Source: Pseudomonadota bacterium
GTDB lineage: Bacteria > Desulfobacterota > Desulfobulbia > Desulfobulbales > JAGXFP01
DNA length: 64,000 bases
Assembly (NCBI GenBank): GCA_018823285.1
Contig: JAHJIQ010000013.1
Location: 89,593 to 153,592 of the forward strand
Reading direction: 5' to 3'
This document shows positions 16,589 to 62,195 of this stretch, one piece after another. How positions within the stretch are numbered: the first letter of the stretch is position 1; each line of letters begins with the position of its first letter. A program made the position numbers and the translations under genes. The notes below the pieces were generated by a model. It was not told where the DNA came from and ran no database searches. It worked only from the letters and a program-made list of their open reading frames with translations.

Positions 16589-18703
16589 GTGCGTCCGGTG
16601 AAGTTGATGGAGAGTCATACCGCTTCGTGTTCAGCAAAAATCATCGGGAATATTGCGTCCTTTTACAGCTCGGTCCGCTCCCGAAAGATTCCCTCATCTT
16701 TTGCCGACGCACGGAAAACCTGCGGCATTATCCAGGGTCTTGCCTCCCTGAAAGAGTCATTAGCGGCGGTAGCGAAATCGCATGAACCCAGCTTCCTGAA
16801 ACTGGGGCAAAACCTCCAGACCATCTACATGAACGCCAACACCCTTGCCGGAAGCACCATCGAGTCGGTCAAGGAAATTTCCGGCGACAACCGGCAAAGC
16901 GCCCTGGCCGGGCTGCGGGACAAAATCCGGATATCCCTGGCCCGAATGGCAGGCGATCAGGCCGCGATCGACAACAACCTGCAGGACCTCGAAACGCAGG
17001 GGCAACATCTCTCAACCCTGACGAACACCAGCCGGGACCTTTACAAAATTGCTTTGTACCTGAAGGTCGCCGGGATCAACATCGGCATTGAAGCAACCCG
17101 CTCCGAAGAGTCGCGGGCCATGTTTTCCCTGACCGCGGAAGAAGTCAGTCAACTCGGGGGCAGGATCATCTCCTTCGCTGAAAATATTGAAGAGGACGCC
17201 TCCCTGGCCCGCAATGTGCAATTGTCGGTTCGGGCGGATATCTCACGGAAACTCGGCAAGTTACGGGAATACGGCGCCGCAGCGGAAACGACCGTCGGGA
17301 ATGCCCTGGCGGTGATTGAGCAACTGCTCCTGAGTACCTCCACAGCCATGGACCAGGCGGCGCTCCACTCCAAATCCATCGCCGCCCATTGCGGCGAAAT
17401 CGTGGTCGGCATCCAGTTCCACGACAGCATGAGCCAACGTCTTGAACACGTCATCGAAACATTTGCTGAAGCAATCACTCTGCTTGCCGATTCCCCTGGT
17501 GAAGACCCTTCGCAGGATCCCCCCCTTCCGCTTGCGGAAAGAATGGCGGCCGCCTACCCCCTCTGCCGGCTCCAGGCCAATCAGATTCAACAGGTGGTTA
17601 CGGAAATCGAATCCCTCCATCAGCAGATATCCCGTTCCTTTGACCTGATCGACCAGATCATCGGGCAGATGGCCGCAGTCCTTTCCGGCCTGTCCGGGGA
17701 CGACCGGGAAGAGCTGTCCGCCCGGCACCCGGGTGACTCATTCGAAAACCTGAAAACCTCCCTCGATGATCTGGTTCTCCTGATGAAACAGGGGGATGAT
17801 CTGATGGAGGATGTCCGCCGGGAGGTCCACGATGCCGCCGAGACCTCCAACCGGCTCCTCTCATTTATGAACAAAGTCAACGCCACGGCGTTTGAAATCA
17901 AGATCCAGGCCCTGAACTCGATCATCAAGGCCGCCCATCTGGGGAACAAAGGGCTGACCCTTGTCGTCCTGGCCCACGAAATTAACACCCTATCCGATAC
18001 CGCAGACACCATTGTTGCAGGGGCGGCGGAAGCGTACCGTCTATTGTCGGACCAGGCGAATAAAAACCTGGTGAACCAGGGAGACGCAGGCCGTGACGAC
18101 ACCTCCCTCAGCACCGCCATCGCAGACATCGAATCCGTCTACGGCCGGTTTAAAACCACCTCGCAATCCGTGGCAGACAAAGCCGAAGCGCTGAGAACCC
18201 TGACCAGGGAAACCAGAACCTCCCTGGATTTCCTGCCGGGCATGGCCGCCCACCTGAATGACTGCCACCGGAAAATGGAAAGCCTCCTCTCCGAGCTGGA
18301 GGAAGAGTGCGGACCTGTCGGCCATGAAACGATCGACGCCGCCATCCGCAATGTTGAGGGCCGCTACACCATGGACCAGGAACGGGTGGTCCATCTGCAG
18401 CTTACGACAGGAATCCCGTCAGAACAATCGCCCATTCAGGCAGATGTCTCCGCCGAACCGGATTCATCGATTGAACTCTTCTCATCCCAGGCGGAAGAGG
18501 ATTCCTCAATCGAACTTTTCGGGACCGACCCCGAAGCAGATTCTTCGGTAGAACTATTCGACGCTCCGCCTGCAGCGGAAAAATGGGAGGAACCACCCAT
18601 CCCCTCGCAGGAAAGCATTGAGCAAAATCGGCCGGCAACGGAATTTTCACAACCGGCCGAAAAGAAGACCGAAGACCTGGGCGATAATGTCGAGCTTTTC
18701 TGA
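16589..18703 (+). CDS. soluble divergent MCP-like chemosensory protein with acidic repeat tail
   Basis: 704-aa ORF with no TM segment. Two segments resemble the MCP hairpin tip (IEATRSEESRAMFSLTAEEVSQL; ALNSIIKAAHLGNKGLTLVVLAHEINTLS). QFHDSMSQRLEHV motif. C-terminal repeats DSS(I/V)ELF x3 plus a terminal DNVELF. It is the first gene of the che operon. The exact start (GTG 16589/16598 or ATG 16607) is uncertain. Confidence 0.75.
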   Translation: MRPVKLMESHTASCSAKIIGNIASFYSSVRSRKIPSSFADARKTCGIIQGLASLKESLAAVAKSHEPSFLKLGQNLQTIYMNANTLAGSTIESVKEISGDNRQSALAGLRDKIRISLARMAGDQAAIDNNLQDLETQGQHLSTLTNTSRDLYKIALYLKVAGINIGIEATRSEESRAMFSLTAEEVSQLGGRIISFAENIEEDASLARNVQLSVRADISRKLGKLREYGAAAETTVGNALAVIEQLLLSTSTAMDQAALHSKSIAAHCGEIVVGIQFHDSMSQRLEHVIETFAEAITLLADSPGEDPSQDPPLPLAERMAAAYPLCRLQANQIQQVVTEIESLHQQISRSFDLIDQIIGQMAAVLSGLSGDDREELSARHPGDSFENLKTSLDDLVLLMKQGDDLMEDVRREVHDAAETSNRLLSFMNKVNATAFEIKIQALNSIIKAAHLGNKGLTLVVLAHEINTLSDTADTIVAGAAEAYRLLSDQANKNLVNQGDAGRDDTSLSTAIADIESVYGRFKTTSQSVADKAEALRTLTRETRTSLDFLPGMAAHLNDCHRKMESLLSELEEECGPVGHETIDAAIRNVEGRYTMDQERVVHLQLTTGIPSEQSPIQADVSAEPDSSIELFSSQAEEDSSIELFGTDPEADSSVELFDAPPAAEKWEEPPIPSQESIEQNRPATEFSQPAEKKTEDLGDNVELF

Positions 18704-18745
18704 CCGCAATATTCCGCTCGCAACGGGCATCCATGGGAGGACAAG

Positions 18746-19093
18746 ATGAAATTGACCATCGAACCGGACGGCAGGCGGGGGACTTTAGTTCTGCGCGGAG
18801 CCCAGACAATCGGGCAGGCGCACGCTTTAAAAGAGAGCCTCCTCGACGCCTTCCAGAAGGTGGAAGAGCTTGAAATCGACATGGACGCCATTACTGAAGC
18901 AGACCTCTCCCTCCTGCAGCTTCTCTGCGCCGCGCACCGGACCTCCCAGGAACTCCGGAAAAAGCTTTTCATAAAAAGGCGCTGGCCGGAAGTCCTGGAA
19001 AAAACGGCCGGATCCGCCGGCTTTTTTCAGCACCGGCGCTGCCAGTTCAATCTGGAAAACGATTGCCTCTGGCGGAAGGAGGGAGGCGAATGA
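18746..19093 (+). CDS. STAS-domain protein (anti-sigma-factor-antagonist-like)
   Basis: 115 aa. LVLRGAQTIGQAHALKESLLDAF....ELEIDMDAITEADLSLLQLLCAA fits the STAS/SpoIIAA fold pattern. GGAGGA RBS. Its stop overlaps the cheY start (ATGA). Confidence 0.75.
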   Translation: MKLTIEPDGRRGTLVLRGAQTIGQAHALKESLLDAFQKVEELEIDMDAITEADLSLLQLLCAAHRTSQELRKKLFIKRRWPEVLEKTAGSAGFFQHRRCQFNLENDCLWRKEGGE

Positions 19094-19458
19094 GCAAAAC
19101 CATCATGACCGTCGATGATTCGGCAAGTGTCCGGCAAATGGTCAACTTTACCCTGAGCGGGGCCGGATACGGCGTTATCGAGGCGGAACACGGCAAGGAC
19201 GCCCTCGCCAAGCTGAAAGCGGCCACGGTCAATATGATCATCACCGACCTGAACATGCCGGAAATGGACGGTATTGAACTGGTCCGCGCCGTCAGAAACG
19301 ATCCCGCCCTGAAATTCATGCCCATCGTGCTCCTGACCACAGAATCCCAGGACACCAAGAAGCAGGAAGGCAAGCAGGCCGGCGCGACCGGCTGGATCGT
19401 CAAGCCGTTCAAACCCGAGCAACTCCTCGGGGTTGTCAAAAAAATTATCGGCAGCTGA
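19090..19458 (+). CDS. cheY: chemotaxis response regulator CheY
   Basis: MSKTIMTVDDSASVRQMV...MIITDLNMPEMDGIELV...TTES...GWIVKPF is the single-domain REC with a CheY-like signature. Confidence 0.9.
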   Translation: MSKTIMTVDDSASVRQMVNFTLSGAGYGVIEAEHGKDALAKLKAATVNMIITDLNMPEMDGIELVRAVRNDPALKFMPIVLLTTESQDTKKQEGKQAGATGWIVKPFKPEQLLGVVKKIIGS

Positions 19459-19485
19459 TATTCCTAATCTTAAGAAAGAGTCGCT

Positions 19486-21615
19486 ATGGATCCACATCAA
19501 ACCGCATACCTGGAAGAAGCCAAAGAACTTCTTGTTGAACTGGAAACCTCGTTGCTGGAGCTCGAGGACACCCCCGATGATCAGGAGCTGATCGGGAGGG
19601 TCTTCCGGGCGCTGCACACCATTAAAGGGTCCGGCGCGATGTTCGGCTTCGACCGGATCGCCGAGTTCACCCATCAGGTGGAAACCGCCTTCGACCTGGT
19701 CCGGTCCGGGAAAATCCCGGTCACCTCCGAGATGATCAACCTCACTTTACGGGCCCGGGACGAGATCAAGGCCATGCTTGAAGAGGCGGAAACCGGCGAG
19801 ACAACGGACCCCGGTTCCGCCGAGGAGATCATCAATGCCTTCATCGCCCTGACCACCGGCGCAGCACCTCCCGCACCGGAGCCCCCGCCCCAGCTTCCTC
19901 CGGCCGAAAACGTCCGGCCCGGGATCATTGCTCCGGATCGGCCGGAGATCAAAGGAAGATTGACCACCTTCAGGATTCTGTTCAAGCCCCGGCGGGAAAT
20001 TCTCCAGACCGGCACCAATCCCATCCTCCTGCTCGATGAGCTGAATGCCCTCGGCGAATGCACGATCATCGTCAATAATGAAAAGATCCCCTCACTCCAC
20101 ACCATCGATACCGAGCAGTGCTATGTGAGCTGGGAAATCCTGCTGACCACCGACCAGGGAATCAACAGCGTCAGGGATGTCTTCATCTTTGTCGAAGACC
20201 TGAGCGAAATCGTGATCGAGGTGCTCGAGGAAGATCTCGATTCCCTGGATGACAGCCAGCAGAAGAGACTCGGCGAAATCCTGATTGAACGCCGTGAAAT
20301 TTCAGCTGAAGCGCTGACCGCCTGCCTCGACAAGCAAAAAAGGATCGGCGAGGTCCTGATCGGCGAGAAACTGATCAGCAACCAGGCCGTTGCCAATGCC
20401 CTGGCCCAGCAGCAGCATTCTTCCAGAGTGCTGAAAAAACAGAAAGAGCTTGCCGAAACTTCAACGATCCGGGTGGAGGCCAATCGTCTGGACAAGCTGG
20501 TCAATCTGGTCGGGGAACTGGTCACCCTGCAGGCCCGCCTGGGCCAGAAGGCCTTCCGGGAAAATGATCCCGACCTCATCTCAATCTCCGAGGAGGCCGA
20601 CCGCCTGACTTCGGCATTACGGAACAATGCGATGAGTATCCGGATGCTGCCCATCGGCAAGACCTTCAGCAAGTTCCGCCGGCTGGTCCGGGACCTCTCG
20701 AAAAACCTCGGCAAGGAGATCATCCTTACCACCGAGGGCGAGGAGACCGAACTGGACAAAACCGTCATCGACAAATTGAATGACCCCCTGGTCCATCTGA
20801 TCCGGAACTGTATCGATCACGGCATCGAACTGCCGGAGGAAAGGATGCATGCGGGCAAAGCAGGCCAGGGGACCATCCATTTAAAGGCTTTCCATTCCGG
20901 GGCCAATGTCTTTCTGCAGATCACCGATGACGGCAAAGGCCTCGACTGCAAGGCGATTCATGCCAAGGGGGTCGAAAAGGGCATCATCCAGGCGGATACC
21001 GTCCTGGCCGAGAAAGAACTCTTCGCCCTCATCTTCGCGCCTGGATTTTCCACCGCCAAAACCGTCTCGGATGTCTCCGGCCGCGGCGTCGGCATGGATG
21101 TGGTGAAAAAGAACATTGACGCCCTCCGCGGCACTATCGAAATCGAAAGCCGGCAGGGCTCCGGGACCACGGTCACCCTCAAACTGCCCCTGACCCTCGC
21201 GATCATCGACGGGCTTCTGGTGCAGATCGGGAAGGGCTTTTTCGTCATCCCGCTCTCCGCAGTCGAGGAATGCCTGGAGGTCACAAGAACGGAGGCAAAC
21301 CAGGCCCTGGAAAGGAGCATGCTCTCCTCCCGGGGGGAAATCCTCTCCTATATCAGCCTGCGCCGGCTGTTTTCCTGTCACGACACCCCTCCGCCCCTGG
21401 AAAAGATCGTGGTGATCGAGGAAAACGGCCACCGGATCGGCCTCGGCCTCGACAGCGTCATCGGCCAGCACCAGACCGTGATCAAGGGGTTGAGCAAGGT
21501 GTATCAGAATGTGAAGGGCCTTTCGGGGGCAACCATCCTCGGCGACGGCACCATGGCCCTGATCCTCGATATCCCGCAACTGGCCCAATGCGTGAAATCA
21601 GAACCGCCATTGTGA
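19486..21615 (+). CDS. cheA: chemotaxis histidine kinase CheA
   Basis: Hpt domain (FRALHTIKGSGAMFGF). Dimerisation/HATPase blocks (HLIRNCIDHGIE; DDGKGLD; GRGVGMDVV; GSGTTVTLKLPLTLAI). C-terminal CheW-like domain. It also contains tandem T2SSE_N/MshEN-like motifs at 20266..20412. Confidence 0.95.
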   Translation: MDPHQTAYLEEAKELLVELETSLLELEDTPDDQELIGRVFRALHTIKGSGAMFGFDRIAEFTHQVETAFDLVRSGKIPVTSEMINLTLRARDEIKAMLEEAETGETTDPGSAEEIINAFIALTTGAAPPAPEPPPQLPPAENVRPGIIAPDRPEIKGRLTTFRILFKPRREILQTGTNPILLLDELNALGECTIIVNNEKIPSLHTIDTEQCYVSWEILLTTDQGINSVRDVFIFVEDLSEIVIEVLEEDLDSLDDSQQKRLGEILIERREISAEALTACLDKQKRIGEVLIGEKLISNQAVANALAQQQHSSRVLKKQKELAETSTIRVEANRLDKLVNLVGELVTLQARLGQKAFRENDPDLISISEEADRLTSALRNNAMSIRMLPIGKTFSKFRRLVRDLSKNLGKEIILTTEGEETELDKTVIDKLNDPLVHLIRNCIDHGIELPEERMHAGKAGQGTIHLKAFHSGANVFLQITDDGKGLDCKAIHAKGVEKGIIQADTVLAEKELFALIFAPGFSTAKTVSDVSGRGVGMDVVKKNIDALRGTIEIESRQGSGTTVTLKLPLTLAIIDGLLVQIGKGFFVIPLSAVEECLEVTRTEANQALERSMLSSRGEILSYISLRRLFSCHDTPPPLEKIVVIEENGHRIGLGLDSVIGQHQTVIKGLSKVYQNVKGLSGATILGDGTMALILDIPQLAQCVKSEPPL

Positions 21616-21690
21616 AATAAAGGAACAGAGAGAGAGTCCACCAACAATATTAATGACAACATCCAACAACCACATCCGGGAGTATTGAGC

Positions 21691-23763
21691 ATGAAGATCA
21701 ACGACATTAAAGTCAGCGTAAAACTCATCGGCGCCTTTCTCATTGTCGCACTCATCGTTGCCATCGTCGGGGTGACCGGCCTGATCACCTGCAACAATGT
21801 CGGCAAAGCGACCGACATCATCCTTGATGAACAGGTCCCCCTGGCGGATGCGACCATGGAGAGCTCCATCGCCCTGATCAGCACCCGGGACCTGATGGGG
21901 GAATTCCTCCTCAATGACAGCAAGGAGACTCTCGATCAGGCCGCCATGGAGTTTGAGAACAATATCAAAAAGCTGCAGGACCAGCTTGCCTTCCTGAAAA
22001 ACAACGGCAACGACGCAATCAAGGAGGCCGTCTCCCAGGCCGAATCGCAGGTGAATCAGTACATCACCGCCGGTCACTCCCTGATGGCCGAACACCGGGA
22101 GAAACTTGCGAAAACCATGGACCGCCAGGCGGCCATGGAGAAACTGGACGCGGAAATCGACTCGATCAAGGAATCCCTTGCAAAATACGAGGAAACCTTG
22201 ACCAGAAACAAGGCAATTGACGAAAAAGTCGATGCGGCCATGGAATCAAAAACCATTATTGTCGAACAGCAGGCCATTGTCGAAGAGTTCATGAGCATCA
22301 GGACCCTTGAAGAATCGTCAGCGCTGCAGCTGTCCTTCAAGGATATGGAAAAACAATTCGACAAGCTGGAGCATCTCCTGCCCAAAGAAACCACCAGGGA
22401 ACACGCCGCATTTTCAGAGAATGCCCACAAAATTTTCAAACTTGGCGCAGAAATCGTGCAGCTGAATACGAACACCAGAACCCAGATGGCCCAGGTAGAC
22501 GAGTTGAGCGGCAAGAGCATCGACCTTGCCGGCAAAATGGAGGAGATTGCCGGCAAAAACATGCAGCTGGCCATGGAATCCGCCGACAGTTCGCAGGGCA
22601 AAGGGCGCTGGATCATCGGGATCATGACCTTCTTGAGTTTTGCCATTGCCTTTCTCCTTGGTTTTTCCCTCTCCCGGCATATTTCCGTGCCCCTGCTGGA
22701 AGCGGTGGATGTCTCGGGGAAACTCAGCAGGGGAGACTTGAGCGTTGAGATTGAAATCAACAGAAAAGACGAAATCGGTCAACTGCTCACCGCCATGAAA
22801 AACATGGTCGCCAAGCTGCGGATGGTGGTCGGCGATGTCTTAAGCGCTTCGAGCAATGTCTCTTCCGGCAGCCAGCAGATGAGTTCGAGCGCCGAAGAGA
22901 TGTCCCAGGGCGCCACGGAACAGGCGGCCGCCGCCGAAGAGGCATCGTCCTCCATGGAAGAGATGGCCTCGAACATCAGCCAGAATGCCGACAACGCCCT
23001 CCAGACCGGCAAGATCGCCGGCAAATCAGCCGAAGACGCCCTCGAAGGCGGCAAAGCGGTGACCGAGACGGTAGCCGCCATGAAGCAGATTGCCGAAAAG
23101 ATCTCGATCATCGAGGAGATTGCCCGCCAGACCGACCTGCTGGCCCTGAACGCCGCCATCGAAGCCGCCCGGGCCGGCGAACACGGCAAGGGCTTTGCGG
23201 TTGTCGCCTCGGAGGTCAGGAAACTTGCGGAACGGAGCCAGACCGCGGCGGGCGAGATCAGCAAGCTCTCCTCCTCCAGCGTCGAAATCGCCGAACATGC
23301 CGGCACCCTGCTCACTTCCCTGGTGCCGAATATCCAGAAAACCTCCGAGCTGGTCCAGGAAATCAGCGCCGCCAGCAATGAGCAGAACACCGGGGCCGAC
23401 CAGATCAACAAGGCAATCCAGCAGCTCGACCAGGTCATCCAGCAGAACGCCGCCGTCGCCGAAGAGATGTCCTCCACTTCCGAGGAGCTGGCCAGCCAGG
23501 CGGAAATGCTGCTTGAGACCGTCGGCTTCTTTAAACTCGACGACCAGGGTTCCGGCCAGATCCGCGGCGAGAGAAGCTATCATCATCAGCATCACACCCC
23601 GCCGAAAAAGACGGCAAAAAGGCAACAGATCGCCCATGTCCCCCATAAAGAAAGCCATGAAGATCCGGCTCAGGGACAGAGTGGAGCAAAAGGTTTTGAA
23701 TTCAACCTCGGCCATGAAGGACCTGCCGGAGACCAGATGGACAATGATTTTGAAAAATATTGA
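21691..23763 (+). CDS. methyl-accepting chemotaxis protein (two TM segments, large helical periplasmic domain, HAMP)
   Basis: Canonical tip [39 protein letters not shown]1 ([21 protein letters not shown]), TM2 ([20 protein letters not shown]) and HAMP. Long unstructured tail ending DFEKY. ATG at 21691 preferred over the TTG at 21685. Confidence 0.95.
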
Positions 23764-23848
23764 AACGGCGTTCACCGCGGATTCCGAAAATGTTCCGGGC
23801 CAACACGCCCGGAACCGCCATTCACATATTTTTTAGGAGAATGTCACC

Positions 23849-24355
23849 ATGAGTGAATCATCTTTGTATCTCACCTTCCGCCTGGAAGATGAACTTTTTG
23901 CCGTGGATGTTTCCCAGGTCCGCGAGGTGCTTGATGTTGCCGCCATCACCAAAATCCCCCGCGCCCTTGATTTTATGCGGGGCATCATCAATATCAGGGG
24001 CACCGTGGTGCCGGTCATCGATCTGCGGACCAAATTCGGCATGACCGAAACCAGACAGACCCTCGATTCGCGGATCGTGGTCATGGAAATCGATCTCGAC
24101 GGCGAGACAACCCTGATCGGGGCGATGGCGGACTCGGTCCATGAAGTCCTCGAACTGGACCGTGACCAGATTGAACCCCCGCCCAGACTCGGCTCGCGCT
24201 GGCGCATTGAATTCATCAAGGGTGTCGGGACCCGGGATGAGGAATTCATCCTGATCCTCGATATCGACCGGGTGTTCTCCGCCGAAGAACTGACCAGGAT
24301 TTCCGCCGTCGACACCAGCGCCCAGGCGGCGCCGGTGGACGATGAAAAAGAGTGA
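23849..24355 (+). CDS. cheW: chemotaxis coupling protein CheW
   Basis: 168 aa. YLTFRLEDELFAVDVSQVREVL......IP....F..G.INIRG.VVPVIDLR is the CheW pattern. Confidence 0.9.
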   Translation: MSESSLYLTFRLEDELFAVDVSQVREVLDVAAITKIPRALDFMRGIINIRGTVVPVIDLRTKFGMTETRQTLDSRIVVMEIDLDGETTLIGAMADSVHEVLELDRDQIEPPPRLGSRWRIEFIKGVGTRDEEFILILDIDRVFSAEELTRISAVDTSAQAAPVDDEKE

Positions 24356-24450
24356 TTGGGACGGGGGTGATCGGTTTGCCGGCGTCATCCAATCCATCCC
24401 CGGCGCTTTCCCAAAAAAGCGAATATGCCGCCGTATCCGCCCCGGAGGCC

Positions 24451-25281
24451 ATGAATGACCGCCTGTTTGCCCGCTTTCAGGCGGTCATCATGGACAAGCT
24501 GGGCATCAAGATCACCAGTGCCAAAAAAACCATGCTCCAGTCCCGCCTGTCGAAGCGGTTACGGTTACGGGGGCTTAAATCCTACGAGGAATATTTTGAT
24601 CTCCTCTTCAAGTCCCCGGCAGGCAGGGATGAAATCCAGGCATTCATAGACGTTATCACCACCAACAAGACCGATTTTTTCCGGGAGCCGCACCATTTCG
24701 ACTATCTCGCCCGCAATGCCTTTCCGCAGATCGTCGGCGGCGGGCGGAGTCTCGACCTGCACCGGGGGATCAATCTCTGGAGTGCCGGTTGTTCCTCGGG
24801 AGAAGAGCCATACACCATAGCCATGGTCGCCAACGAGTTTTTCCGCCTGCGCCAAAATCTCCGCTATACCATCTATGCCAGCGACATCTGCTCCACCGTT
24901 CTCCGGAAGGCCAGAACTGCGGTTTATCCACACCACACCGCAGCACCCATCCCGGTTGACCTGAAAAAAAAATACCTGCTGCGCAGCAAGGACCGCAACA
25001 ATGACCAGGTCAGAATCATTCCGGAACTCCGGGCGAAAATCCGGTTTCTGCAGCTCAACTTCATGGACGACGAGTACCGTCTGCCGACCAAGGTCCAGGT
25101 GATTTTCTGCCGCAATGTCATGATCTATTTCGATCAAGAGACCCAGAAAAAGGTCCTGGCCAGGATGTGCCGCGAGCTTCTGCCGGGCGGCTATCTTTTT
25201 GTCGGGCATTCCGAAACCCTTACCGGCCTCGGGCTGCCTCTGGTTTCCGTCGGCCCTACCATCTACAGGAAGATCACATGA
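24451..25281 (+). CDS. cheR: chemotaxis protein methyltransferase CheR
   Basis: TTNKTDFFREPHHF, NLWSAGCSSGEEPYTIAM, IFCRNVMIYFD. Start chosen at the ATG at 24451 (GGAGG upstream) within the 24352..25281 ORF. Confidence 0.9.
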   Translation: MNDRLFARFQAVIMDKLGIKITSAKKTMLQSRLSKRLRLRGLKSYEEYFDLLFKSPAGRDEIQAFIDVITTNKTDFFREPHHFDYLARNAFPQIVGGGRSLDLHRGINLWSAGCSSGEEPYTIAMVANEFFRLRQNLRYTIYASDICSTVLRKARTAVYPHHTAAPIPVDLKKKYLLRSKDRNNDQVRIIPELRAKIRFLQLNFMDDEYRLPTKVQVIFCRNVMIYFDQETQKKVLARMCRELLPGGYLFVGHSETLTGLGLPLVSVGPTIYRKIT

Positions 25282-25883
25282 GCCCGCGCAATTCTTGTGT
25301 GTCGCAGATCTATCTCAAACCGGCGATGATTTTCTTCGATGCCTCGCCGGCCTGCGTTTCCACGGTGCTCGGCTCCTGTGTGACCCTCACCATGCTCGTT
25401 CGCCGGCTCGAGCTGGCCTCGGTCTGCCACGCCCAGCTCCCTTACTGCAAAACGCCGGGGTCTTGCGCCACCACCTGCAGCGAAAAATATAAATTTGTCG
25501 ATTGTGCGATTACCCGCATGTTGGAAAGCTTTACCGGTTGCGGCGCCGCTCTTTCGGAAATAGAAATCAAGATCTTCGGCGGCGCCGACGGCATCAGGGG
25601 GGACACTCCCGGCGGGCAGTCGATCCGGATCGGCAAAATGAATATCGAAGCAGCCATCCGGACCCTGCGGCAACGGGAGCTGAAACCGGTCAGCGGAGAT
25701 GTCGGCGGGTCAAGAGGACGGAAGATTTACTTCCTCACTCCCACGGGTGACGTCTGGTCTAAAAAACTCTCGGCGGGGGAGCCCTGTCCCAGATACCCGG
25801 AAAATGTCGGCCATCAAAATATCACCCTGGGCGGATTCACCATCTGCCCGGCCACGCAGCAGCAGGATTTCAATTTTTTATAA
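25278..25883 (+). CDS. cheD: chemoreceptor glutamine deamidase CheD
   Basis: VSTVLGSCVTLTM....ASVCHAQLP, then EIKIFGGA and GGSRGRKIYF blocks. ATG at 25278 overlaps the cheR stop. At about 200 aa it is longer than typical CheD. Confidence 0.8.
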   Translation: MSPRNSCVSQIYLKPAMIFFDASPACVSTVLGSCVTLTMLVRRLELASVCHAQLPYCKTPGSCATTCSEKYKFVDCAITRMLESFTGCGAALSEIEIKIFGGADGIRGDTPGGQSIRIGKMNIEAAIRTLRQRELKPVSGDVGGSRGRKIYFLTPTGDVWSKKLSAGEPCPRYPENVGHQNITLGGFTICPATQQQDFNFL

Positions 25884-26978
<1,095 letters not shown>

Positions 26979-27113: not shown

Positions 27114-28184
27114 TTAGTTCGCCCTGATTTGCGGGGCCAGGCTCGCCATCTTGATCTGCATCAGCGTGGGATTACAATCCGGTGCAACCAGGGCAACCAG
27201 CAGGAACTCCCCTTTGCTTCCGGCGCTGCGTGTGGCCAGGGTGCCATCGGTCGACTCCAGGACAATGGAGTCGCATTTTTCCAGTCCGTTTTCGGTTGTT
27301 GTCTGTGACGCCAGCCTGAACAGGTCGGCAATAACCGTCCCGCCGCTGTTGAGGTCGATCGAATTCCCGTTTTTCTCCTCCGCCAGCAACACCCCATTCC
27401 TGTGCAGGATTGCTGCCCCGATATATCCCGCCACTTTTGCCAGCGCCCTGAATATCCCGGCCTGCGGCAATTCCTTTTCTTCCGGCTGGGTCACGGCCCG
27501 GCTTGCGGTTTCATCTTTTCTGCGGCTTGCCTCGAGCAAGAGCCCGACATAGCTCTTTTCAATGCTCAGGACCGGGGGCCTGACATTCCTCCTGCTTTCG
27601 ATATTGCCGCCCCCAAAGGCCATAATCCGGTAAAAAGCCTCCTCTCCTTCAATATCACCGGCAATGGCGTGGACAATATTGCCGCTGTCGAAAAATATCA
27701 TCCCCGATTTTTTTCCGTCACGGATCTTGAGCGCTACAGTATTGCACGACAGGCAATTGAGCTGAATCATGTCTGAGAGCTCAATACCGGCCATGGTACC
27801 GGTAAAGCCTTTCTGTTCGGTCAGAGCCTCGATCACGCTACCACGTAAGAGCTCGATATCATAAGGTTTTTCAATAAAACGAAGACATCCGCCGAGGAGC
27901 GCGTCGCGTTTTATTTCAGCAGTCGGGAAGGCGGTCATTACAATAAAAGCAAGGTCCGGGACTATCGCCGATGCCGCCAGAATCAGTTCCATGCCATTCA
28001 TTCCCGGCATATGAACATCGGTGATCAGGAGACTGATACCTTCCTTTTCAATGATCGACAGCGCCTCTTCGCCGGAGGAGGCGGTGATGATTTCGGCATT
28101 GATCTCTTTACAGTCAAGGCTTAAGGCGAGAATTTTAAGCTCCTCGATCTCGTCGTCTACCAGTAATATTTTTTTCATAGGCAT
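27114..28184 (-). CDS. response regulator with REC, PATAN (DUF4388) and Roadblock/LC7-like domains
   Basis: REC domain (KKILLVDDEIEELK...LLITDVHMPGMNGMELI). DUF4388-like block (GIELSDMIQLNCLSCNTVALKIRDGKKSGMIFFDSGNIVHAIAGDIEGEEAFYRIM). C-terminus resembles Roadblock/MglB (VAGYIGAAILHRNGVLLAEE...). Start ambiguous (28178, 28184 or 28187). Confidence 0.8.
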   Translation of the reverse strand: MPMKKILLVDDEIEELKILALSLDCKEINAEIITASSGEEALSIIEKEGISLLITDVHMPGMNGMELILAASAIVPDLAFIVMTAFPTAEIKRDALLGGCLRFIEKPYDIELLRGSVIEALTEQKGFTGTMAGIELSDMIQLNCLSCNTVALKIRDGKKSGMIFFDSGNIVHAIAGDIEGEEAFYRIMAFGGGNIESRRNVRPPVLSIEKSYVGLLLEASRRKDETASRAVTQPEEKELPQAGIFRALAKVAGYIGAAILHRNGVLLAEEKNGNSIDLNSGGTVIADLFRLASQTTTENGLEKCDSIVLESTDGTLATRSAGSKGEFLLVALVAPDCNPTLMQIKMASLAPQIRAN

Positions 28185-28417
28185 CACCCGATATGTGCAT
28201 GCAACAGCAGATAAAACTTTATGTAATCAGACAAACATTTCCGACCCGACAGGGATTTCAACAGCCTCCCAGAGGACTCCCGGGGGAAGATCAGCCCATA
28301 CCCGGAAAGACTTTTGCCGAACATTTTCCTGATTATAAAAGGATATTACGCACTCCACAGAAGTGTCAAGAATTGAATTCCCGAAAAGACTCTTTTGACC
28401 TGTTTGAACCCATGCCT

Positions 28418-28447
28418 TTGACTTTCCGTATATTCAACCATTATAAT
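28418..28447 (+). promoter_or_regulatory. candidate sigma-70-type promoter upstream of the flagellin gene
   Basis: TTGACT (28418-28423), an 18-nt spacer, then TATAAT (28442-28447), about 90 nt upstream of the flagellin ATG. I could not find a convincing sigma-28 (TAAA-N15-GCCGATAA) motif. Confidence 0.4.
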
Positions 28448-28533
28448 AACATTAGGGCGTATCCTGTTGCTGCCCGGCTCCCGGCTTTTCTCTTAAAGGC
28501 CGGACATATTCCCCCCTCTCTGGAGGATTTACC

Positions 28534-30429
28534 ATGCCACTTAAAATCAATGACCCTTCTTCTCTCTTTGGCTTGAACCGCCTGAACCAGACTCACAAAA
28601 CCCTTTCCAGTTCGCTCGAGAAACTTGCCACCGGCAGCCGCATCAACCGGGCTGCGGATGACGCCTCGGGCATGGCCATTGCCGATGCCCTGGAAAGCCA
28701 GCGAAAGGGATACGTCCAGGCAATCCGCAACGCAACCGATGCGATCTCCATCACCCAGACCGCAGACGGCGCGATCGGCGAAATGACCAGTATTCTCCAG
28801 GAGATCCGGACCAAGGCGATCCAGGCCGCTTCCGACAGCCAGTCCCGAGACTCACGCCAGGCCCTGCAGGCGGATATCAACCGATACCTTGAAGGGCTGG
28901 ACAATATCGCCAGGACCACATCCTACAACGGCCAGAAACTTCTGACCGGCCAGTTCGCAGGGAAATCGTTTCAGGTAGGCGCGGTTTCCGGGGAGACCGT
29001 GCAGATCAGTATCGGAGATATCAGTCTTGGAAAACTCGGCGGAGGATCCGATTCCGGCGATGGAGAACAGGTCTCGCGCACCTATCTTGCCTCGCCCCTG
29101 ACCCTGCAGAATCCCCTGACGACCAGCGCCGAGTCAAGCCTTGAACCGGGTTCAACGTTAACAGCGCGGACGGAACTCGCCGCCGGGTCCTCCCTCGGGT
29201 TCGCTCTGGACAGCGTCAATCTGGGCGCCGATATTTCGACAACCGGCGAATCAGCTCTCGCAGCCGGTTCTACCCTTGGGGCGGGGAGTGTTATCGCAGG
29301 CGGCACAGAGCTCGGCGGCACAGTCACGCTTGCCGCCGACACGACCACAAGCGGGGTGAACACCATTGCCACCGGCTCGACTCTTGCCACCGGGACCATT
29401 CTTGCCGCCGGGACCGTCTTGAGCACCGACATAACCAGTGGCGGCACAACGTATTCCTCCGGGCAGCCCCTTGCCGCAGAGGTCACCCTGACCCAGGACG
29501 CAGCGATAACCGCACCATTGCACCTCGGCCCGGGATCATCCGTCGCCGCCGGCAGCTCCCTGGCCGGAGGTTCCGCCATATCCGGCAATATCACCCTGGC
29601 CGCCACCGCAACCATGACCGGCCCGGCAGTTTTGAAAAGCGGTTCAATCATCGCGGATGCTGCGGGAACAAACATTCTGTCCGGCTCAAGCATCGGAGGC
29701 CGGCTGACTCTTGCCGCCAACACCTCCGTTATCGGGAAGATGACCGTTGCCGCAGGCTCAGAGATCGAGGCGGGGAGCCTCCTTGGGTCAGGATCATCCG
29801 TGGGTGGTCCGGTCGTCACAGGGACCCCGTTCACCCTTGACAACACGATGCACATCGGTGCGGGGTCTCTGCTGGAATCAGGATCGGTACTCAAGGCGGG
29901 AACAGTTCTGGGAAGCGGGGTCAGCGTGGCCGGAGGGCAATCTCCGGGAGCCGGGACCGTCCTGACCGGCGATGTCGTCACCGAGGGCCGGAATTACCTC
30001 GATTCGGGAACGATCCTCGCAAAAGGCTCGACCCTGGCATCCGGCTCAACCATTGCCCCGCAGACATCACCTGTTACTACTGCCGGAGACAGCAGGCCCT
30101 CAGGATTCAGCCGGCTTGCGGAAATCGATGTGACTTCCATGGAAGGCGCCCAGGCGGCCATCGGCGCAGTTGACGAAGCGCTGTCCCAGCTGAACCGGAC
30201 CAGATCGGGCCTCGGCTCCACCCAGAATCAGCTGGTCTCCTCCATCACCAACCTGTCGGTCACCATGGCCAACACCGCAGCCGCCGGATCGACCATTGCC
30301 GATCTGGACTTCGCCGAGGAATCGACCCTGCTCAACAACTTCCAGATCCTGCTGAAAGCGCAGGTGTTCGCCCAGGCTCAGACCAACCGGATCAGAGGCA
30401 GCAATGTCATGAGTTTATTGCAGGGATAA
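28534..30429 (+). CDS. fliC: flagellin with expanded hexapeptide-repeat central domain
   Basis: N-terminal D0/D1 (LEKLATGSRINRAADDASGMAIADAL; ISITQTADGAIGE...ILQEIR). C-terminal D1/D0 (LGSTQNQLVSSITNLS....IADLDFAEEST.L...QIL.QA...AQAQ). Strong RBS GGAGGA. The central ~330 aa is G/S/T/A/L-rich with 6-residue periodicity. Confidence 0.85.
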   Translation: MPLKINDPSSLFGLNRLNQTHKTLSSSLEKLATGSRINRAADDASGMAIADALESQRKGYVQAIRNATDAISITQTADGAIGEMTSILQEIRTKAIQAASDSQSRDSRQALQADINRYLEGLDNIARTTSYNGQKLLTGQFAGKSFQVGAVSGETVQISIGDISLGKLGGGSDSGDGEQVSRTYLASPLTLQNPLTTSAESSLEPGSTLTARTELAAGSSLGFALDSVNLGADISTTGESALAAGSTLGAGSVIAGGTELGGTVTLAADTTTSGVNTIATGSTLATGTILAAGTVLSTDITSGGTTYSSGQPLAAEVTLTQDAAITAPLHLGPGSSVAAGSSLAGGSAISGNITLAATATMTGPAVLKSGSIIADAAGTNILSGSSIGGRLTLAANTSVIGKMTVAAGSEIEAGSLLGSGSSVGGPVVTGTPFTLDNTMHIGAGSLLESGSVLKAGTVLGSGVSVAGGQSPGAGTVLTGDVVTEGRNYLDSGTILAKGSTLASGSTIAPQTSPVTTAGDSRPSGFSRLAEIDVTSMEGAQAAIGAVDEALSQLNRTRSGLGSTQNQLVSSITNLSVTMANTAAAGSTIADLDFAEESTLLNNFQILLKAQVFAQAQTNRIRGSNVMSLLQG

Positions 30430-44641: not shown

Positions 44642-45448
44642 TCAACGGATCATCGAGCTGTCCGGATGGTAGCCGGAAGGGGCCGTTGTATTCGGAAGAA
44701 GAAATGATTTTTTGCCGATCAGGGTCCCCGGGCTGGTGACGGAATTGCACCCGGTCTGGGTCTGATCGCCCAGAACCGCGCCAAACTTGCGTAACCCGGT
44801 ATCAATGGTCTTTTCTGCCGTTCTGACATTCACGTTGCCACTGACAAAACGTAAGTTCGCCATCTTGGTGCCCGCCCCGAGATTCACATGATTGCCGAGG
44901 ATCGTGTCACCGAGATACGCGAAATGGCCGGCCTTGGCATCGTCGAAGAACACCGTGTTCTTGACCTCGGTCACATGCCCCGCCACACAGCGACTGCCGA
45001 TCAGACAATTCCCCCGTAGATAGGCTCCCTGTCTGACTTCGGACATGTCGCCAATGACGGTCGGGGAATGGATCAGGGCCCCCGGCTCAATCAACACCCC
45101 CCGCCCGATCGCGATTCTCTTGCCGATCAGGACCGCACCGGCCATGAGCACACTGGCCCCTTCGAGTCGGTTCGCTCCCCGGAAAACGGCGAGTTTCCCT
45201 TTCGTCGCATCTGCGTACTCAATCCGCAGGTCCTCACCATTCAGGAACTCGCCCCGGTAGAGAACCAGAGTTTCCGCAAGCGGCACGCCACGCCATCCTC
45301 CCGACGGAATTGTGGTGTACTCCTGATCCCCCATATACTCCGCAAGTCTTTTCAGCCCGCACCAGACCGGCTCCCGCTCTGAAAAGAGTTCCCGGTGGGC
45401 AAATCCTGACATTTCAAAAAAAGCCTTGGCTGTTAAGTCCGTTGTCAT
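44642..45448 (-). CDS. hexapeptide-repeat (left-handed beta-helix) transferase family protein
   Basis: Repeated [LIV]G..... hexads across the C-terminal two-thirds (VLIGKRIAIGRGVLIEPGALI...; NCLIGSRCVAGHVTEV; GDTILGNHVNLGAGT). Confidence 0.7.
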   Translation of the reverse strand: MTTDLTAKAFFEMSGFAHRELFSEREPVWCGLKRLAEYMGDQEYTTIPSGGWRGVPLAETLVLYRGEFLNGEDLRIEYADATKGKLAVFRGANRLEGASVLMAGAVLIGKRIAIGRGVLIEPGALIHSPTVIGDMSEVRQGAYLRGNCLIGSRCVAGHVTEVKNTVFFDDAKAGHFAYLGDTILGNHVNLGAGTKMANLRFVSGNVNVRTAEKTIDTGLRKFGAVLGDQTQTGCNSVTSPGTLIGKKSFLLPNTTAPSGYHPDSSMIR

Positions 45449-52042: not shown

Positions 52043-53131
52043 TCATGCCTCGATGTCAACCAGCGATACTTCACGGAACCGCCCTTTCTTCTCCGCAGTT
52101 TCCTTCATGATTTTTTTCAGTCCGCCATCACATTGTCGACAATTCAAACTCACACGGGCAAAACCGTTTTCATGAAGCAATTTCCTGAGTTCATTGAGGT
52201 TTGCTCTCAGAAAGTCCCGGACTTTTTTATCACCAACCAGAAAACTGCCTATGAGCTCCTCCGGACCAACCTCCAACGAGAGATGAATTTCGCCAAGCCG
52301 GCTCATTTCCAGGAAAAAATCTAAACAGTAGCCGCCTGCAATGCCGCCGGCAGCCCCCTCCTTTCGTTCGGCAAAGAACATCCACTGCCCCCAGCCTTCA
52401 GAAGCCGAGAAAAAACAGGGGAAAACGAAAAAATCCGAAGGCTCGCTCACCGACGCCGACTGGTTAAACACCTTCAGACTTTCAAGAAAACGACCCATCC
52501 TGACCAGACCATCGACATTGTCATGACCGGCTCTGTTTTTCAGGATGCCAGGATTCCCTTCCAAAAGTTCCTGCCAGGCATCAGCCTGTTTCCTGTCATG
52601 AAAATATCCCGCCTCACTCCCGAATACCGACAGGGACTTGAGCATCATCAGGATCTTCCCGGAGTCACTGTCCTCATTCACCCCTGCCCCGGCGAGAAGC
52701 ATCAGCACCTCTTTCACCATTGCCCCCCTGTCGCCCGGCAGTTGATCAACCTGGTAACTCCCGGACAAAAAAGGCTCCAGCAGCTTCAGGGCTTCGCCAA
52801 TTCTGCCGGTATGAGAAAAAAGGTTCCTGAGCAGATCCGCCATGGCCATTTTCCGGACTGCCAGGGACAGGCTCGGCGGGTCGCCCTCTTTGATAACTTC
52901 CAGCACAACCTCGGCTCCTGCCGGAAAGGAGACCTCGCTTCTGGCGGTGATGATTCCACCCTCGGTTTTTAGCTGCAGCAGCCCATCTTTTGCCGCGCCA
53001 AGAACCGTGGCCCTTAGTAACTGACCGGCTTTGAACCCGGGCCCGGAGCGCAAAGCGCCACCGGGTCCCCGATCAATAGCGGAAATCGAAACCTTCAGAA
53101 CCTGCAAAGGAATGCGGGAAGAAATCTTCAT
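52043..53131 (-). CDS. FliK-like (flagellar hook-length control C-terminal domain) protein
   Basis: C-terminal GEIHLSLEVGPEELIGSFLVGDKKVRDFLRANLNELRKLLHENGF resembles the Flg_hook domain (L.P..LG.v.v........f.......r..l...l..L...L...G). N-terminal AGQLLRATVLG....LLQL is also FliK-like. It sits immediately downstream of the hybrid kinase. Confidence 0.6.
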   Translation of the reverse strand: MKISSRIPLQVLKVSISAIDRGPGGALRSGPGFKAGQLLRATVLGAAKDGLLQLKTEGGIITARSEVSFPAGAEVVLEVIKEGDPPSLSLAVRKMAMADLLRNLFSHTGRIGEALKLLEPFLSGSYQVDQLPGDRGAMVKEVLMLLAGAGVNEDSDSGKILMMLKSLSVFGSEAGYFHDRKQADAWQELLEGNPGILKNRAGHDNVDGLVRMGRFLESLKVFNQSASVSEPSDFFVFPCFFSASEGWGQWMFFAERKEGAAGGIAGGYCLDFFLEMSRLGEIHLSLEVGPEELIGSFLVGDKKVRDFLRANLNELRKLLHENGFARVSLNCRQCDGGLKKIMKETAEKKGRFREVSLVDIEA

Positions 53132-53140
53132 CTTGATGAA

Positions 53141-55087
53141 TCAGGAATTGTGCAGCAAGGAAACCGGAAGATAGACCACCACATCGAGACCGCCGGAAGC
53201 GCTTTTCTTGATCTCGGAAAAGCCGCCATGATTTTCAAGCACCTTTTCCACCATGGTCAGCCCCATCCCGGTCCCATAGGTCTTGGTGGTAAAGAAAGGG
53301 TCTGCCGCTTTTTCGATATAATCTTCAGACATCCCGATCCCGGTATCGGAAACGGAGACAATGACCCAATCACTTGTTTTACTGACTACCACTTTCAGGA
53401 AGCCCCCTTCCGGCATAGCTTCCACAGCGTTTTTGAAAAGATGCAAAAAGATCTGCCGGATCTGCTTGGGATTTACGACAACCTTGAGTTCCTGATCATC
53501 ACACTCCAATTCCCACCTGATCTGCTGCTTCTGCATATCCTGCTGGACCAGCATCATGGTTTTTCGCAGCAATCCGTAGAGCACCACAGGCTCCCGACTT
53601 TTCTCATCCTGCTGCTCGGTGTAATCGCAGAGATCATCAAGTATCTTTTCCAGACGGTCTGTTTCAGTGCTGATCACCTCGAGAAACTTTTTCTGCTCCT
53701 CGGTTGCATACTTCCGGTTCAGGATCCTCGCAGATCCGCCGATGGAGGTGATGGGATTCCTGATGGAATGAACAAGCTGTGCCGCCATCTGCCCCAGAGC
53801 GGAATATCGATCAGCTTCAATCAACAGGTCCTTGTTTTTATCAAGTTCCTCATTCAGGCTTTCCAGTTCCTCGATCTTAAGCTGCTGATCACGGTAGAGA
53901 TGGCTGTGTTCAATGGCAAGGCTTGCCTGGCTGGCAAAAAGCTCAAGAGAACCGATGTGGTTGTCGCTAATCGGCTGCCGGGTGACAAAATTGTCGGCGA
54001 TGATCACCCCGAAAGGGCGGCTCGGCGAGAACAGTGGCACAATTACAAAAGTATCTTCATTCAACAGCTCCATCAGCTGATGGGGAACCTGGATCGCTCC
54101 GGAAGCGGCATCATAGCGTCGTTCAACGGCCTCCGGCCAGATACTCTCGCCAAGCAGACTTTCCTGGGAGCGTCTTTCCAGTGGCACCGGCAGACTGCCG
54201 TTGTCCCGGGAAACCCGGATGCTTCTCCTTTCCCGGGCTGCCTTGATCAGGATGTTATCAATGTCGTCAGCGGGAATCCTCAACTCTTTGATGATCCGGT
54301 TCACTTCGCTGTCGGCGCCATTGCAACTGCTCCGAAATTCGTTGACTATCTGCAGGAAGCTTAACGACTTGTCCTGCATCTCGGCCCAGATCTTCCCGGC
54401 ATCATCCCTGCAATCCGGACCGATAGCAAGCCTGCCCTCAAGATACCGGTTATCGTCATCAAACATGGCCAGAAAGGCCCGGTTAAAGCGCAGACCTTCG
54501 TTTGCGGTAATGCCCACCAGAACCGCCTGCAGAATCTCATCGAGTTCCACCGTACTCAGGTAGGCATGATTCATTTTTACGGAGAGCTGATGCAGTACAT
54601 GAATCCTGAAATGGGCTTTTTCAAGATCCTCATGATATTTGCGATTTTCAAAAATCAGACGCCTTTTTTCAAGCGTCTTCTTCACCACGATGAGGATTTC
54701 ACTGAACTGAACCGGCTTGGAGAGATAATCATCCGCACCCTCCCGGATACAGTCGAGAGCAACCTTGAGATCGGCAACCCCTGTCAGCATGATGACCGCC
54801 ACATCAGGATACTTCTCATGAATCTGGGGAAGCAGGGAACGGCCGTCAATATCAGGCAACCCGATATCAAGAAGAACAAGGGCAACTCCGCCCTTATCCA
54901 TCGCCTGGAGAAGCTCTTCAGCGTTGGAAAAATCACCTACTGAAAGGCCCTGGTCTTCCAGAAAGATCTTGAGAGGCTCACGAATGGACGGATCATCATC
55001 GACGATAAATATCTTCTCTCCAGGACCCAATAACTGCCCTGTTGCGAGAGAGGCGTGATGACGAAGTCCGGAAAAATTTCCAACCAT
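53141..55087 (-). CDS. hybrid sensor: REC-GAF-histidine kinase
   Basis: REC domain (IFIVDDDPSIREPL...LVLLDIGLPDIDG). Central GAF-like region. H-box (AAQLVHSIRNPITSIGG). HATPase_c domain (VSDTGIGM; TKTYGTGMGLTMVEKV). Confidence 0.9.
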   Translation of the reverse strand: MVGNFSGLRHHASLATGQLLGPGEKIFIVDDDPSIREPLKIFLEDQGLSVGDFSNAEELLQAMDKGGVALVLLDIGLPDIDGRSLLPQIHEKYPDVAVIMLTGVADLKVALDCIREGADDYLSKPVQFSEILIVVKKTLEKRRLIFENRKYHEDLEKAHFRIHVLHQLSVKMNHAYLSTVELDEILQAVLVGITANEGLRFNRAFLAMFDDDNRYLEGRLAIGPDCRDDAGKIWAEMQDKSLSFLQIVNEFRSSCNGADSEVNRIIKELRIPADDIDNILIKAARERRSIRVSRDNGSLPVPLERRSQESLLGESIWPEAVERRYDAASGAIQVPHQLMELLNEDTFVIVPLFSPSRPFGVIIADNFVTRQPISDNHIGSLELFASQASLAIEHSHLYRDQQLKIEELESLNEELDKNKDLLIEADRYSALGQMAAQLVHSIRNPITSIGGSARILNRKYATEEQKKFLEVISTETDRLEKILDDLCDYTEQQDEKSREPVVLYGLLRKTMMLVQQDMQKQQIRWELECDDQELKVVVNPKQIRQIFLHLFKNAVEAMPEGGFLKVVVSKTSDWVIVSVSDTGIGMSEDYIEKAADPFFTTKTYGTGMGLTMVEKVLENHGGFSEIKKSASGGLDVVVYLPVSLLHNS

Positions 55088-61270: not shown

Positions 61271-61297
61271 ATCTCACCTTCGTTATTAGAATCTTCA

Positions 61298-62152
61298 TTA
61301 CTGAACTGCCCGACCATGCGGGAAATCGCTGCCTGCGGTCGGCGGCGGGGGCGCCATCATCGACGGATCAAGCCTTAACAGCCGCTGTGACCTCCGCTGG
61401 AGCAGATCGGCCGGCGGCCCAGGCGGTTTACTCGGCGCACCGGAACCCGTTTCCGGTGTTGGCGCGGTATTTCTCGGGGTTACTTCGGTCGGCGGCTCAG
61501 GAGCCCTGGTTACAGCAGGGGGAGAGGCAACAGGGCTCGCCTCAGCTGCCGCTGCGCGCGTCGGCTGGCCGGCACGTCCCCTGACCACAACCCGGGACTT
61601 GTTCTGGTCATGGAGAAATTTTTCAATTTTCTCCCCGTCCTTTTCGAACACGATCCGGTCTTCCTCGACCCTGGCCACCACAAAACCCATAAAAAGAGCG
61701 CCCTGGTCAAGCTGTTCGTGCTGCAGCACCGAGGCCGCTCTCCCCTTTACAGGAGCTCTGGTTCTGGAGCCTTTTTCCACGTTTGCCGGCGCGGCCGGAT
61801 AAGCAACGAGGGCTTTCCGCAGTTCGCCGATAATCACCGACCCTTCGTAGAAAACCTCCTCAAGATCGGTCGAGCTGACAATTTCCGGTTCCTTTTTGCC
61901 GTCGCTCGTGAACTCGTCAAGATCACTTTCATCCAGCTCCCGATCCTCAACAAAAACATATCCTTGATTCAGATCGGGCAAGGGTTTGGCTATCTCCGGA
62001 TTAAAAACCATTGCTTCGGGCACTTCACTCTCTTCCTTTGCCTGGCTCTCAACCACAGGTTTTTCATCAGGCGTCCATGGCCCGCTTAAACCAATGCGCA
62101 TGATGATCATCAGGCTCAAAAGGAGAAGTATCAAATGGGTAAATCGTGTCAT
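61298..62152 (-). CDS. GspC/PilP-like periplasmic protein with Pro-rich tail
   Basis: N-terminal TM/signal segment (LILLLLSLMIIM). Segment LDQGALFMGFVVARVEEDRIVFEKDGEKIEKFL resembles the secretin-interacting beta-domain of PilP/GspC. The C-terminal ~90 aa is Pro/Ala-rich. Confidence 0.5.
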   Translation of the reverse strand: MTRFTHLILLLLSLMIIMRIGLSGPWTPDEKPVVESQAKEESEVPEAMVFNPEIAKPLPDLNQGYVFVEDRELDESDLDEFTSDGKKEPEIVSSTDLEEVFYEGSVIIGELRKALVAYPAAPANVEKGSRTRAPVKGRAASVLQHEQLDQGALFMGFVVARVEEDRIVFEKDGEKIEKFLHDQNKSRVVVRGRAGQPTRAAAAEASPVASPPAVTRAPEPPTEVTPRNTAPTPETGSGAPSKPPGPPADLLQRRSQRLLRLDPSMMAPPPPTAGSDFPHGRAVQ

Positions 62153-62195
62153 TTCACCTGCTCAATGTCCGTCCGTTCCGTTTGCCCGGCCGGAC

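Follow-up and report, generated by a model that had tools for sequence, protein, structure and literature searches.

The window analysed here, a 64,000-nucleotide stretch of contig JAHJIQ010000013.1, carries an intact open reading frame (ORF) of 631 amino acids that encodes a flagellin with a central domain built on a six-residue repeat (Table 1). An initial annotation of the same DNA had described the D0/D1 segments on either side of this domain as conventional flagellin, and both are indeed recognized well above the Pfam cutoffs: Flagellin_N (PF00669) scores 135.9 bits against a cutoff of 26.6 (E = 1.3e-39), and Flagellin_C (PF00700) scores 59.2 bits against a cutoff of 23 (E = 5.1e-16). The NCBIfam flagellin models give 160-260 bits on the whole protein; the cutoffs of the full-length flagellin equivalogs are not reached, because the insert differs. 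An identity as FlgL (HAP3) was rejected, as TIGR02550 scores 70.1 bits, below its cutoff of 127.2, and the flagellin models score higher. When the full-length AlphaFold2 model (mean predicted local distance difference test score, pLDDT, of 63) was compared with known structures by Foldseek, it matched the filaments of H. pylori, V. cholerae, C. jejuni, and Salmonella with E = 5e-16 to 1e-8; the D0/D1 region dominates these matches, which are uninformative on the insert. A pseudogene or an assembly artefact, the former having been raised by the annotation itself, can be set aside. The ORF is intact, with a Shine-Dalgarno sequence before it. NCBI contigs of metagenome-assembled genomes (MAGs) contain the identical protein, as MBU0479588.1 and MBU1737252.1 (annotated 'hypothetical protein [Proteobacteria bacterium]'), and so does an independent Logan assembly, which excludes an artefact of assembly.

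Table 1 Features of the flagellin gene and its surroundings. Positions are those of the window; aa, amino acids; nt, nucleotides.
Feature	Position	Strand	Basis
che operon (MCP, STAS, CheY-like, CheA, MCP, CheW, CheR, CheD, CheB), upstream	16589..26978	+	Pfam on identical contig; CheB checked in window
Response regulator REC-PATAN(DUF4388)-Roadblock, divergent	27114..28187	-	Response_reg 5.7e-17, DUF4388 3.6e-13, Robl_LC7 20.7 bits
Sigma-70-like promoter candidate, TTGACT-18 nt-TATAAT	28418..28447	+	Consensus scan 11/12; ~87 nt upstream of ATG
GGAGG Shine-Dalgarno	28523-28527	+	6 nt before ATG
Flagellin gene	28534..30429	+	ORF list; intact ORF, 631 aa
N-terminal D0/D1 segment, aa 1-170	28534..29043	+	Flagellin_N aa 14-140; AlphaFold helices 8-32, 45-99, 105-128
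Central outer domain with hexapeptide repeat, aa ~181-524 (repeat core 186-515)	29074..30105	+	Periodicity, Hexapep, PDB profile matches, AlphaFold strands
C-terminal D1/D0 segment, aa 531-631	30124..30426	+	Flagellin_C aa 543-629; AlphaFold helix 536-630

The annotation had placed a strict hexapeptide repeat at nucleotides 29090-30080, which correspond to aa 186-515 of the ORF, and the peptide strings that it quoted are present in the translation. The repeat itself is real. Within aa 186-515, the period-6 power of the aliphatic residues is 0.82, compared with 0.19 ± 0.05 in shuffled sequences (z = 12.2), and none of the 1000 shuffles reaches 0.82. The autocorrelation of the aliphatic residues has its maxima at lags of 6, 12, 18, and 24, and the period-6 signal is not present in the D0/D1 flanks. 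Tracing the register with the Viterbi algorithm showed an aliphatic residue at position 1 in 50 of the 58 hexads, with a profile over the six positions of L/I/V, A/G, A/G/S, G, S/T, and T/S/V. Likewise, the consensus [LIV]-[GAED]-x-x-[STAV]-x proposed in the annotation fits the region, with 29 matches against 13.1 ± 3.0 in shuffled sequences (2000 shuffles, maximum 24). The Hexapep profile (PF00132), to which the annotation had also pointed, scores 43.5 bits in the insert, above its curated gathering (GA) cutoff of 27, and a Pfam match to LbH_EIF2B lies below threshold. However, the repeat is not strict: it contains six register shifts, with in-register blocks of 41, 74, 76, 46, and 91 residues, and the longest uninterrupted stretch of perfect-consensus hexads is five. 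A higher-order repeat is also present, since the BLOSUM self-similarity of the window protein and its relatives is greatest at lag 36, not 18, and the anchor motifs of the relatives are spaced by 36-38 residues. In composition, Gly, Thr, Ala, Ser, and Leu make up 70% of the insert, and Ser and Thr together account for 29%.

The profile of the insert is that seen in left-handed beta-helix (LbH) proteins. All 60 matches listed for the insert-family profile against the PDB, out of 100 with E ≤ 1, are LbH proteins, and they include LpxD (the best, 1e-6), gamma-carbonic anhydrases, GlmU, PglD, DapH, CcmN, and eIF2B-epsilon. A search of the PDB with the single sequence of the insert returned 21 matches, 20 of them LbH proteins and one a marginal match to monalysin (E = 0.82). 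The bactofilin type of repeat, which the annotation had considered alongside Hexapep, found no support: PF04519 gives no match at E ≤ 0.1, and no bactofilin is among the PDB sequence or structure matches listed. The AlphaFold2 model of the insert alone has a mean pLDDT of 69.9 and a predicted template modelling score (pTM) of 0.48, with a pLDDT of at least 70 at 198 of 356 residues and below 50 at ~20% of them. Two blocks of this model, aa ~244-384 (pLDDT 71-90) and aa ~434-504 (pLDDT 79-95), are confident, and DSSP assigns strands of two to three residues every six residues across ~300 aa. Such a periodic strand pattern would be expected of a hexapeptide solenoid. Taken together, these results make a beta-solenoid of the LbH sequence type the probable fold of the insert, while a canonical LbH remains unconfirmed. 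The beta-helix predicted in the annotation is supported by the sequence profile, whose listed matches are all LbH proteins, and by the short strands; the structure prediction that it proposed as a check returned moderate confidence, and Foldseek brought up neither an LbH nor any other fold, so that the beta-helix is likely but not confirmed.

The way in which the insert is attached to the filament core adds a further constraint. It is joined to D1 by two linkers (aa 171-187 and 511-525), both short and modelled with low confidence. As the insert leaves and re-enters D1 through these linkers, its two ends should lie close together, and the solenoid is therefore most likely arranged in two or more side-by-side segments rather than as one straight rod. 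A straight helix of ~18 coils (~85 Å) would be incompatible with insertion into D1, whereas two or more antiparallel sub-helices would be compatible with it; the latter arrangement fits the two confident blocks of the AlphaFold model. The annotation had overlooked that a domain inserted into D1 needs to bring both ends together.

The repeat domain is not confined to the window protein. An exhaustive HMMER search with the insert against 1.84 billion representatives (E ≤ 1e-3) identified 61 clusters carrying the domain, and ~45 of these are flagellins or flagellin fragments, as judged by local phmmer with the N- and C-terminal segments of the window protein. The annotation had allowed that the central region might prove to be a common, already described flagellin domain; it is no one-off, given the ~45 flagellin clusters, but no description of it was found in the searchable literature. 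The relatives span 495 to 1340 aa, and many of the flagellins, at 800-1340 aa, contain between one and several copies of the repeat region. Among the 43 flagellin-type members, Hexapep is found in 28, LbH_EIF2B in 26, and Flagellin_IN in 29; unlike these last 29, the window protein has no Flagellin_IN domain. All members with an organism name belong to the Desulfobacterota or Thermodesulfobacteriota. They include the cultured Desulfospira joergensenii (WP_022664654.1, 1339 aa), Desulfurivibrio alkaliphilus (D6Z3H3, a weak match), Thermosulfurimonas dismutans (A0A7C3GRR9), and MAGs of Desulfobacterales and Desulfobacteraceae. The closest relatives, P0003 (48% identity) and P0006 (~50%), are 'short' forms encoded by orphan genes, as is the window protein. 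A search of GTDB genomes with the whole window protein found only three distant flagellins (Macromonas, Chthoniobacteraceae). In the alignment of the insert family, the only conserved columns are Gly, Ser, and aliphatic residues, and members that are only 31-48% identical keep these periodic positions. No conserved His, Asp, Cys, or metal ligand was found in this alignment.

The longer relatives lie in different surroundings. P0004, a giant flagellin of 1328 aa, is encoded in a locus (L008) with the order FlgL-like/CsrA/FliW/flagellin/TPR/FlaG/FliS/FliD, and P0007 adjoins an MptE/Maf-like TPR protein. Maf enzymes carry out O-glycosylation of surface Ser and Thr residues on flagellins (PMC11339370, PMC4065374). 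Upstream of P0004, L008 2365-5832 (+) encodes an unusually long FlgL-like protein of 1155 aa in which Flagellin_N is the only match; the expansion of outer domains may thus reach the hook-filament junction protein. The search also brought up two giant Hexapep-rich proteins that are not flagellins, P0034 (1247 aa) and P0039 (1796 aa, from a Logan contig), which match the window insert at E = 1e-9 to 1e-12. At its C-terminal end, P0039 has the intramolecular-chaperone domain Peptidase_S74, as is typical of the tail fibres or tailspikes of phages, which suggests that hexapeptide repeats serve as fibre shafts. Such fibrous proteins may be an evolutionary source of the flagellin insert.

The best explanation, to which we give a probability of about 0.6, is that the window gene encodes a structural flagellin, predicted to assemble into filaments, whose insert has no enzymatic role and coats the filament with a solenoid that is rich in Ser and Thr and probably glycosylated. 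The N- and C-terminal helices would build the conserved D0/D1 filament core, and the solenoid, folded into two or more adjacent segments, would bring both of its ends back to D1. The insert would then form a thick, rigid, Ser/Thr-rich coat, probably O-glycosylated, that could alter the diameter, stiffness, and surface chemistry of the filament. The length of this coat would be set by the number of repeats, whose expansion would give the 800-1340-aa 'giant' flagellins of the family. The window gene would represent the minimal 'short' form, monocistronic and probably read from a sigma-70-type promoter.

Several results weigh against this explanation. The model of the insert is of moderate confidence in its pLDDT and pTM, aa ~388-426 and 175-193 are poorly modelled, and the full-length and domain-only AlphaFold models disagree in detail. 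The insert model had no significant Foldseek match in either the PDB (best E = 0.029, TM ~0.1) or BFVD, and no LbH protein was among the matches listed. The geometry of the insert may be non-canonical, the model may be elongated or poorly packed, or Foldseek may be weak on repetitive 3Di strings. In addition, the self-similarity of the insert is maximal at 36-38 aa rather than at 18 aa, the length of a single LbH coil, and because the composition of the insert is of low complexity, weak profile matches are inflated. Finally, no other flagellin was found elsewhere in the window, tblastn probes for CsrA, FliW, FlaG, FliS, FliD, and Maf were negative there, and no glycosyltransferase is encoded within it.

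Some of these points would be accounted for if the insert were a beta-solenoid of another or a new kind, built on the 36-38-residue unit, for example with two layers per coil, with more or fewer faces, or as a right-handed, bactofilin-like helix. Foldseek found no LbH match although segments of the model are locally confident, the super-period comes without an 18-aa signal, and the ends-together topology expected of a D1 insertion would disfavour a simple straight helix. However, positions 1, 2, and 5 of the hexad profile agree with the LbH consensus, every PDB profile match listed is an LbH protein with no bactofilin or other solenoid family among them, and Foldseek may under-detect repetitive 3Di strings. 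On balance, we consider a non-canonical solenoid unlikely.

The insert could also have no fold of its own and be a largely flexible, low-complexity spacer of Ser, Thr, Gly, and Ala that serves for glycosylation, its hexapeptide signal being left by recent tandem duplication. The strongly biased composition, the ~20% of residues with a pLDDT below 50, the pTM of 0.48, and the lack of a structural neighbour by Foldseek are in keeping with such a spacer. Yet relatives of only 31-48% identity retain the periodic aliphatic, Gly, and Ser positions, which would not be expected of a disordered segment, the 198 residues with a pLDDT of at least 70 show regular strand spacing, and the repeat units are divergent at the protein level. 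A flexible spacer is therefore improbable.

The surroundings of the gene bear on its expression and on its place in the filament. The sigma-70-like candidate upstream of the gene matches the consensus at 11 of 12 positions, and no sigma-28 promoter of the TAAA-N15-GCCGATAA type with three or fewer mismatches occurs in the 346-nt upstream region, the consensus being of the E. coli type, which may not apply to this lineage. No match to the sigma-54 consensus was found in the same region. The annotation's description of a sigma-70-like rather than a sigma-28-like motif therefore agrees with the scan, and the flagellin is probably transcribed from a sigma-70-type promoter, as far as consensus matches can indicate. 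The upstream gene is divergent and the downstream gene convergent, so that the flagellin gene is monocistronic. The two homologues closest to the window gene (L006 and L009) also have an upstream TATAATAA box, and three 'short' orphan members thus have a -10-like box of this kind (L006 1-194, L009 3302-3454, and window 28188-28536). The 'long' forms, of 800-1340 aa and with Flagellin_IN, are found at loci for flagellar genes or for glycosylation (L008, L007). The sample, although small, hints at two subfamilies, short and long, that are regulated differently.

The neighbours named in the annotation are present as described. The divergent gene has the REC, PATAN, and Roadblock domains, with Robl_LC7 slightly under its GA (20.7 versus 23 bits), and the che operon, which is complete, ends with CheB at 26978. 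Both are regarded here as context only. No flagellar genes adjoin the flagellin, again as annotated. A 362-aa ORF with a FliK/Flg_hook hook-length-control domain (36.6 bits, cutoff 29.8) is encoded 22 kb away, at 52043-53131 (-). The gene immediately upstream of this ORF is a hybrid REC-HisKA-HATPase kinase (53141-55087), and no other flagellar gene is close to it. The presence of this FliK-domain ORF in the window implies that the organism has flagellar genes elsewhere.

This orphan position, together with the sigma-70-like promoter, would be explained if the protein were not a major filament subunit and were instead a flagellin-like export product of the flagellar type III system with another role, such as a minor or specialised segment of the filament or a secreted adhesin comparable to Campylobacter FlaC. 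The absence of flanking flagellar genes, the promoter type common to two other 'short' orphan homologues, and the location of the 'long' relatives in flagellar loci speak for such a role. On the other hand, the window protein has full-length D0/D1 and scores as a flagellin rather than as FlgL, and no second flagellin is in evidence. Flagellin genes are, moreover, often unlinked from other flagellar genes, so that orphan status alone is unremarkable. We give a role other than that of a major filament subunit little credence. An enzymatic LbH acyltransferase insert was rejected, as the family alignment holds no conserved catalytic residues, and LbH trimers with acyltransferase active sites are not expected on the filament lattice.

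A structural flagellin with a solenoid coat, the explanation preferred here, can be compared with several known systems. Flagellins whose outer domain is large (the giant flagellins of Thomson et al. 2018, PMC6248924, and the outer-domain clusters of Fields et al. 2024, PMC11532411) share with the window protein a D0/D1 core and a variable insert between the halves of D1, and relatives of the window protein likewise reach 1340 aa by repeating the insert. However, the folds named in these papers are Ig-like, beta-barrel, DE-region, peptidase, and pectate-lyase-like, whereas the window insert is of the hexapeptide (LbH) type, and both papers are silent on hexapeptide repeats and left-handed beta-helices. 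The LbH proteins (PF00132: LpxA, LpxD, GlmU, DapD, gamma-carbonic anhydrase, CcmN, and eIF2B-epsilon) have the same consensus in long tandem arrays. Unlike them, the window insert is embedded in a flagellin, shows no conserved catalytic residues, and has a 36-38-aa super-repeat, and the insert model superposed on no LbH structure. The enzymes among them are trimers whose acyl/acetyl-transferase or carbonic-anhydrase active sites lie where the subunits meet. Flagellinolysin and other flagellins with co-opted domains are similar in that a domain from an unrelated family is inserted as the flagellin outer domain, but in flagellinolysin the domain is an active HExxH protease, whereas the module in the window protein is apparently purely structural; the flagella_HExxH model matches the window protein in the D1 region only. 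The fibrous proteins P0034 and P0039 use the same repeat family in long non-enzymatic arrays, but they are metagenomic, uncharacterised, and without flagellin termini.

We found no description in the searchable literature of a flagellin outer domain of this hexapeptide-repeat type, and neither a survey of flagellin diversity (PMC7018530) nor the giant-flagellin paper (PMC6248924) mentions such a domain. To this extent, the annotation's view that known variable domains of flagellins are not hexapeptide helices is borne out. The helical character of the domain is less novel than it had proposed. The pectate-lyase-like fold is a right-handed beta-helix. In the 2024 AlphaFold survey of Fields et al., 16,948 flagellin outer domains were grouped into 682 clusters, of which cluster #35 has the pectate-lyase-like fold (PMC11532411), so that a beta-helical outer domain is not in itself a novelty. 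The family members D6Z3H3 and A0A7C3GRR9 probably sit unremarked among the 682 clusters.

Flagellin outer domains set the thickness, stiffness, surface charge, adhesion, and antigenicity of the filament, and most of their structural classes are uncharacterised. If the insert is a hexapeptide beta-solenoid, it would add to them a rod-like, repetitive scaffold that is lengthened simply by more repeats, and it would be a rare example of an LbH repeat with a purely structural role outside the cell. Work on flagellar mechanics in sediment anaerobes and on engineered displayed scaffolds could profit from it, and Desulfospira joergensenii and Desulfurivibrio alkaliphilus are cultured carriers. No concept is overturned, as a broad diversity of outer domains, including beta-helical inserts, is already established; the domain is one more type, undescribed so far, in a very diverse protein family. 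A bolder proposal, which we put forward tentatively and regard as somewhat unlikely, is that a family restricted to the Desulfobacterota/Thermodesulfobacteriota coats its filaments with a hexapeptide solenoid that has a 36-38-residue unit and no detectable PDB neighbour. Either this would be the first LbH to play a structural, non-enzymatic part on a flagellar filament, or the architecture of the solenoid would be new. The short orphans would serve as alternative flagellins that sigma-70-type promoters uncouple from the sigma-28 flagellar hierarchy.

Three further regions of the window were noted. An ordinary Hexapep/LbH protein of 268 aa (56 bits), presumably of the acyltransferase type and unrelated to the flagellin insert, is encoded at 44642-45448 (-). 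A 700-aa protein at 1001-3103 (-) consists almost entirely of ankyrin repeats (Ank_2, 332 bits) together with a Sel1 repeat, which is unusual in a bacterium. At 58973-63919 (-), a GspD/PilQ-like secretin (Secretin, 173 bits) lies 3' of three ORFs of 284, 194, and 380 aa that have no Pfam match; the region is possibly a divergent operon for the assembly of a pilus or a secretion system.

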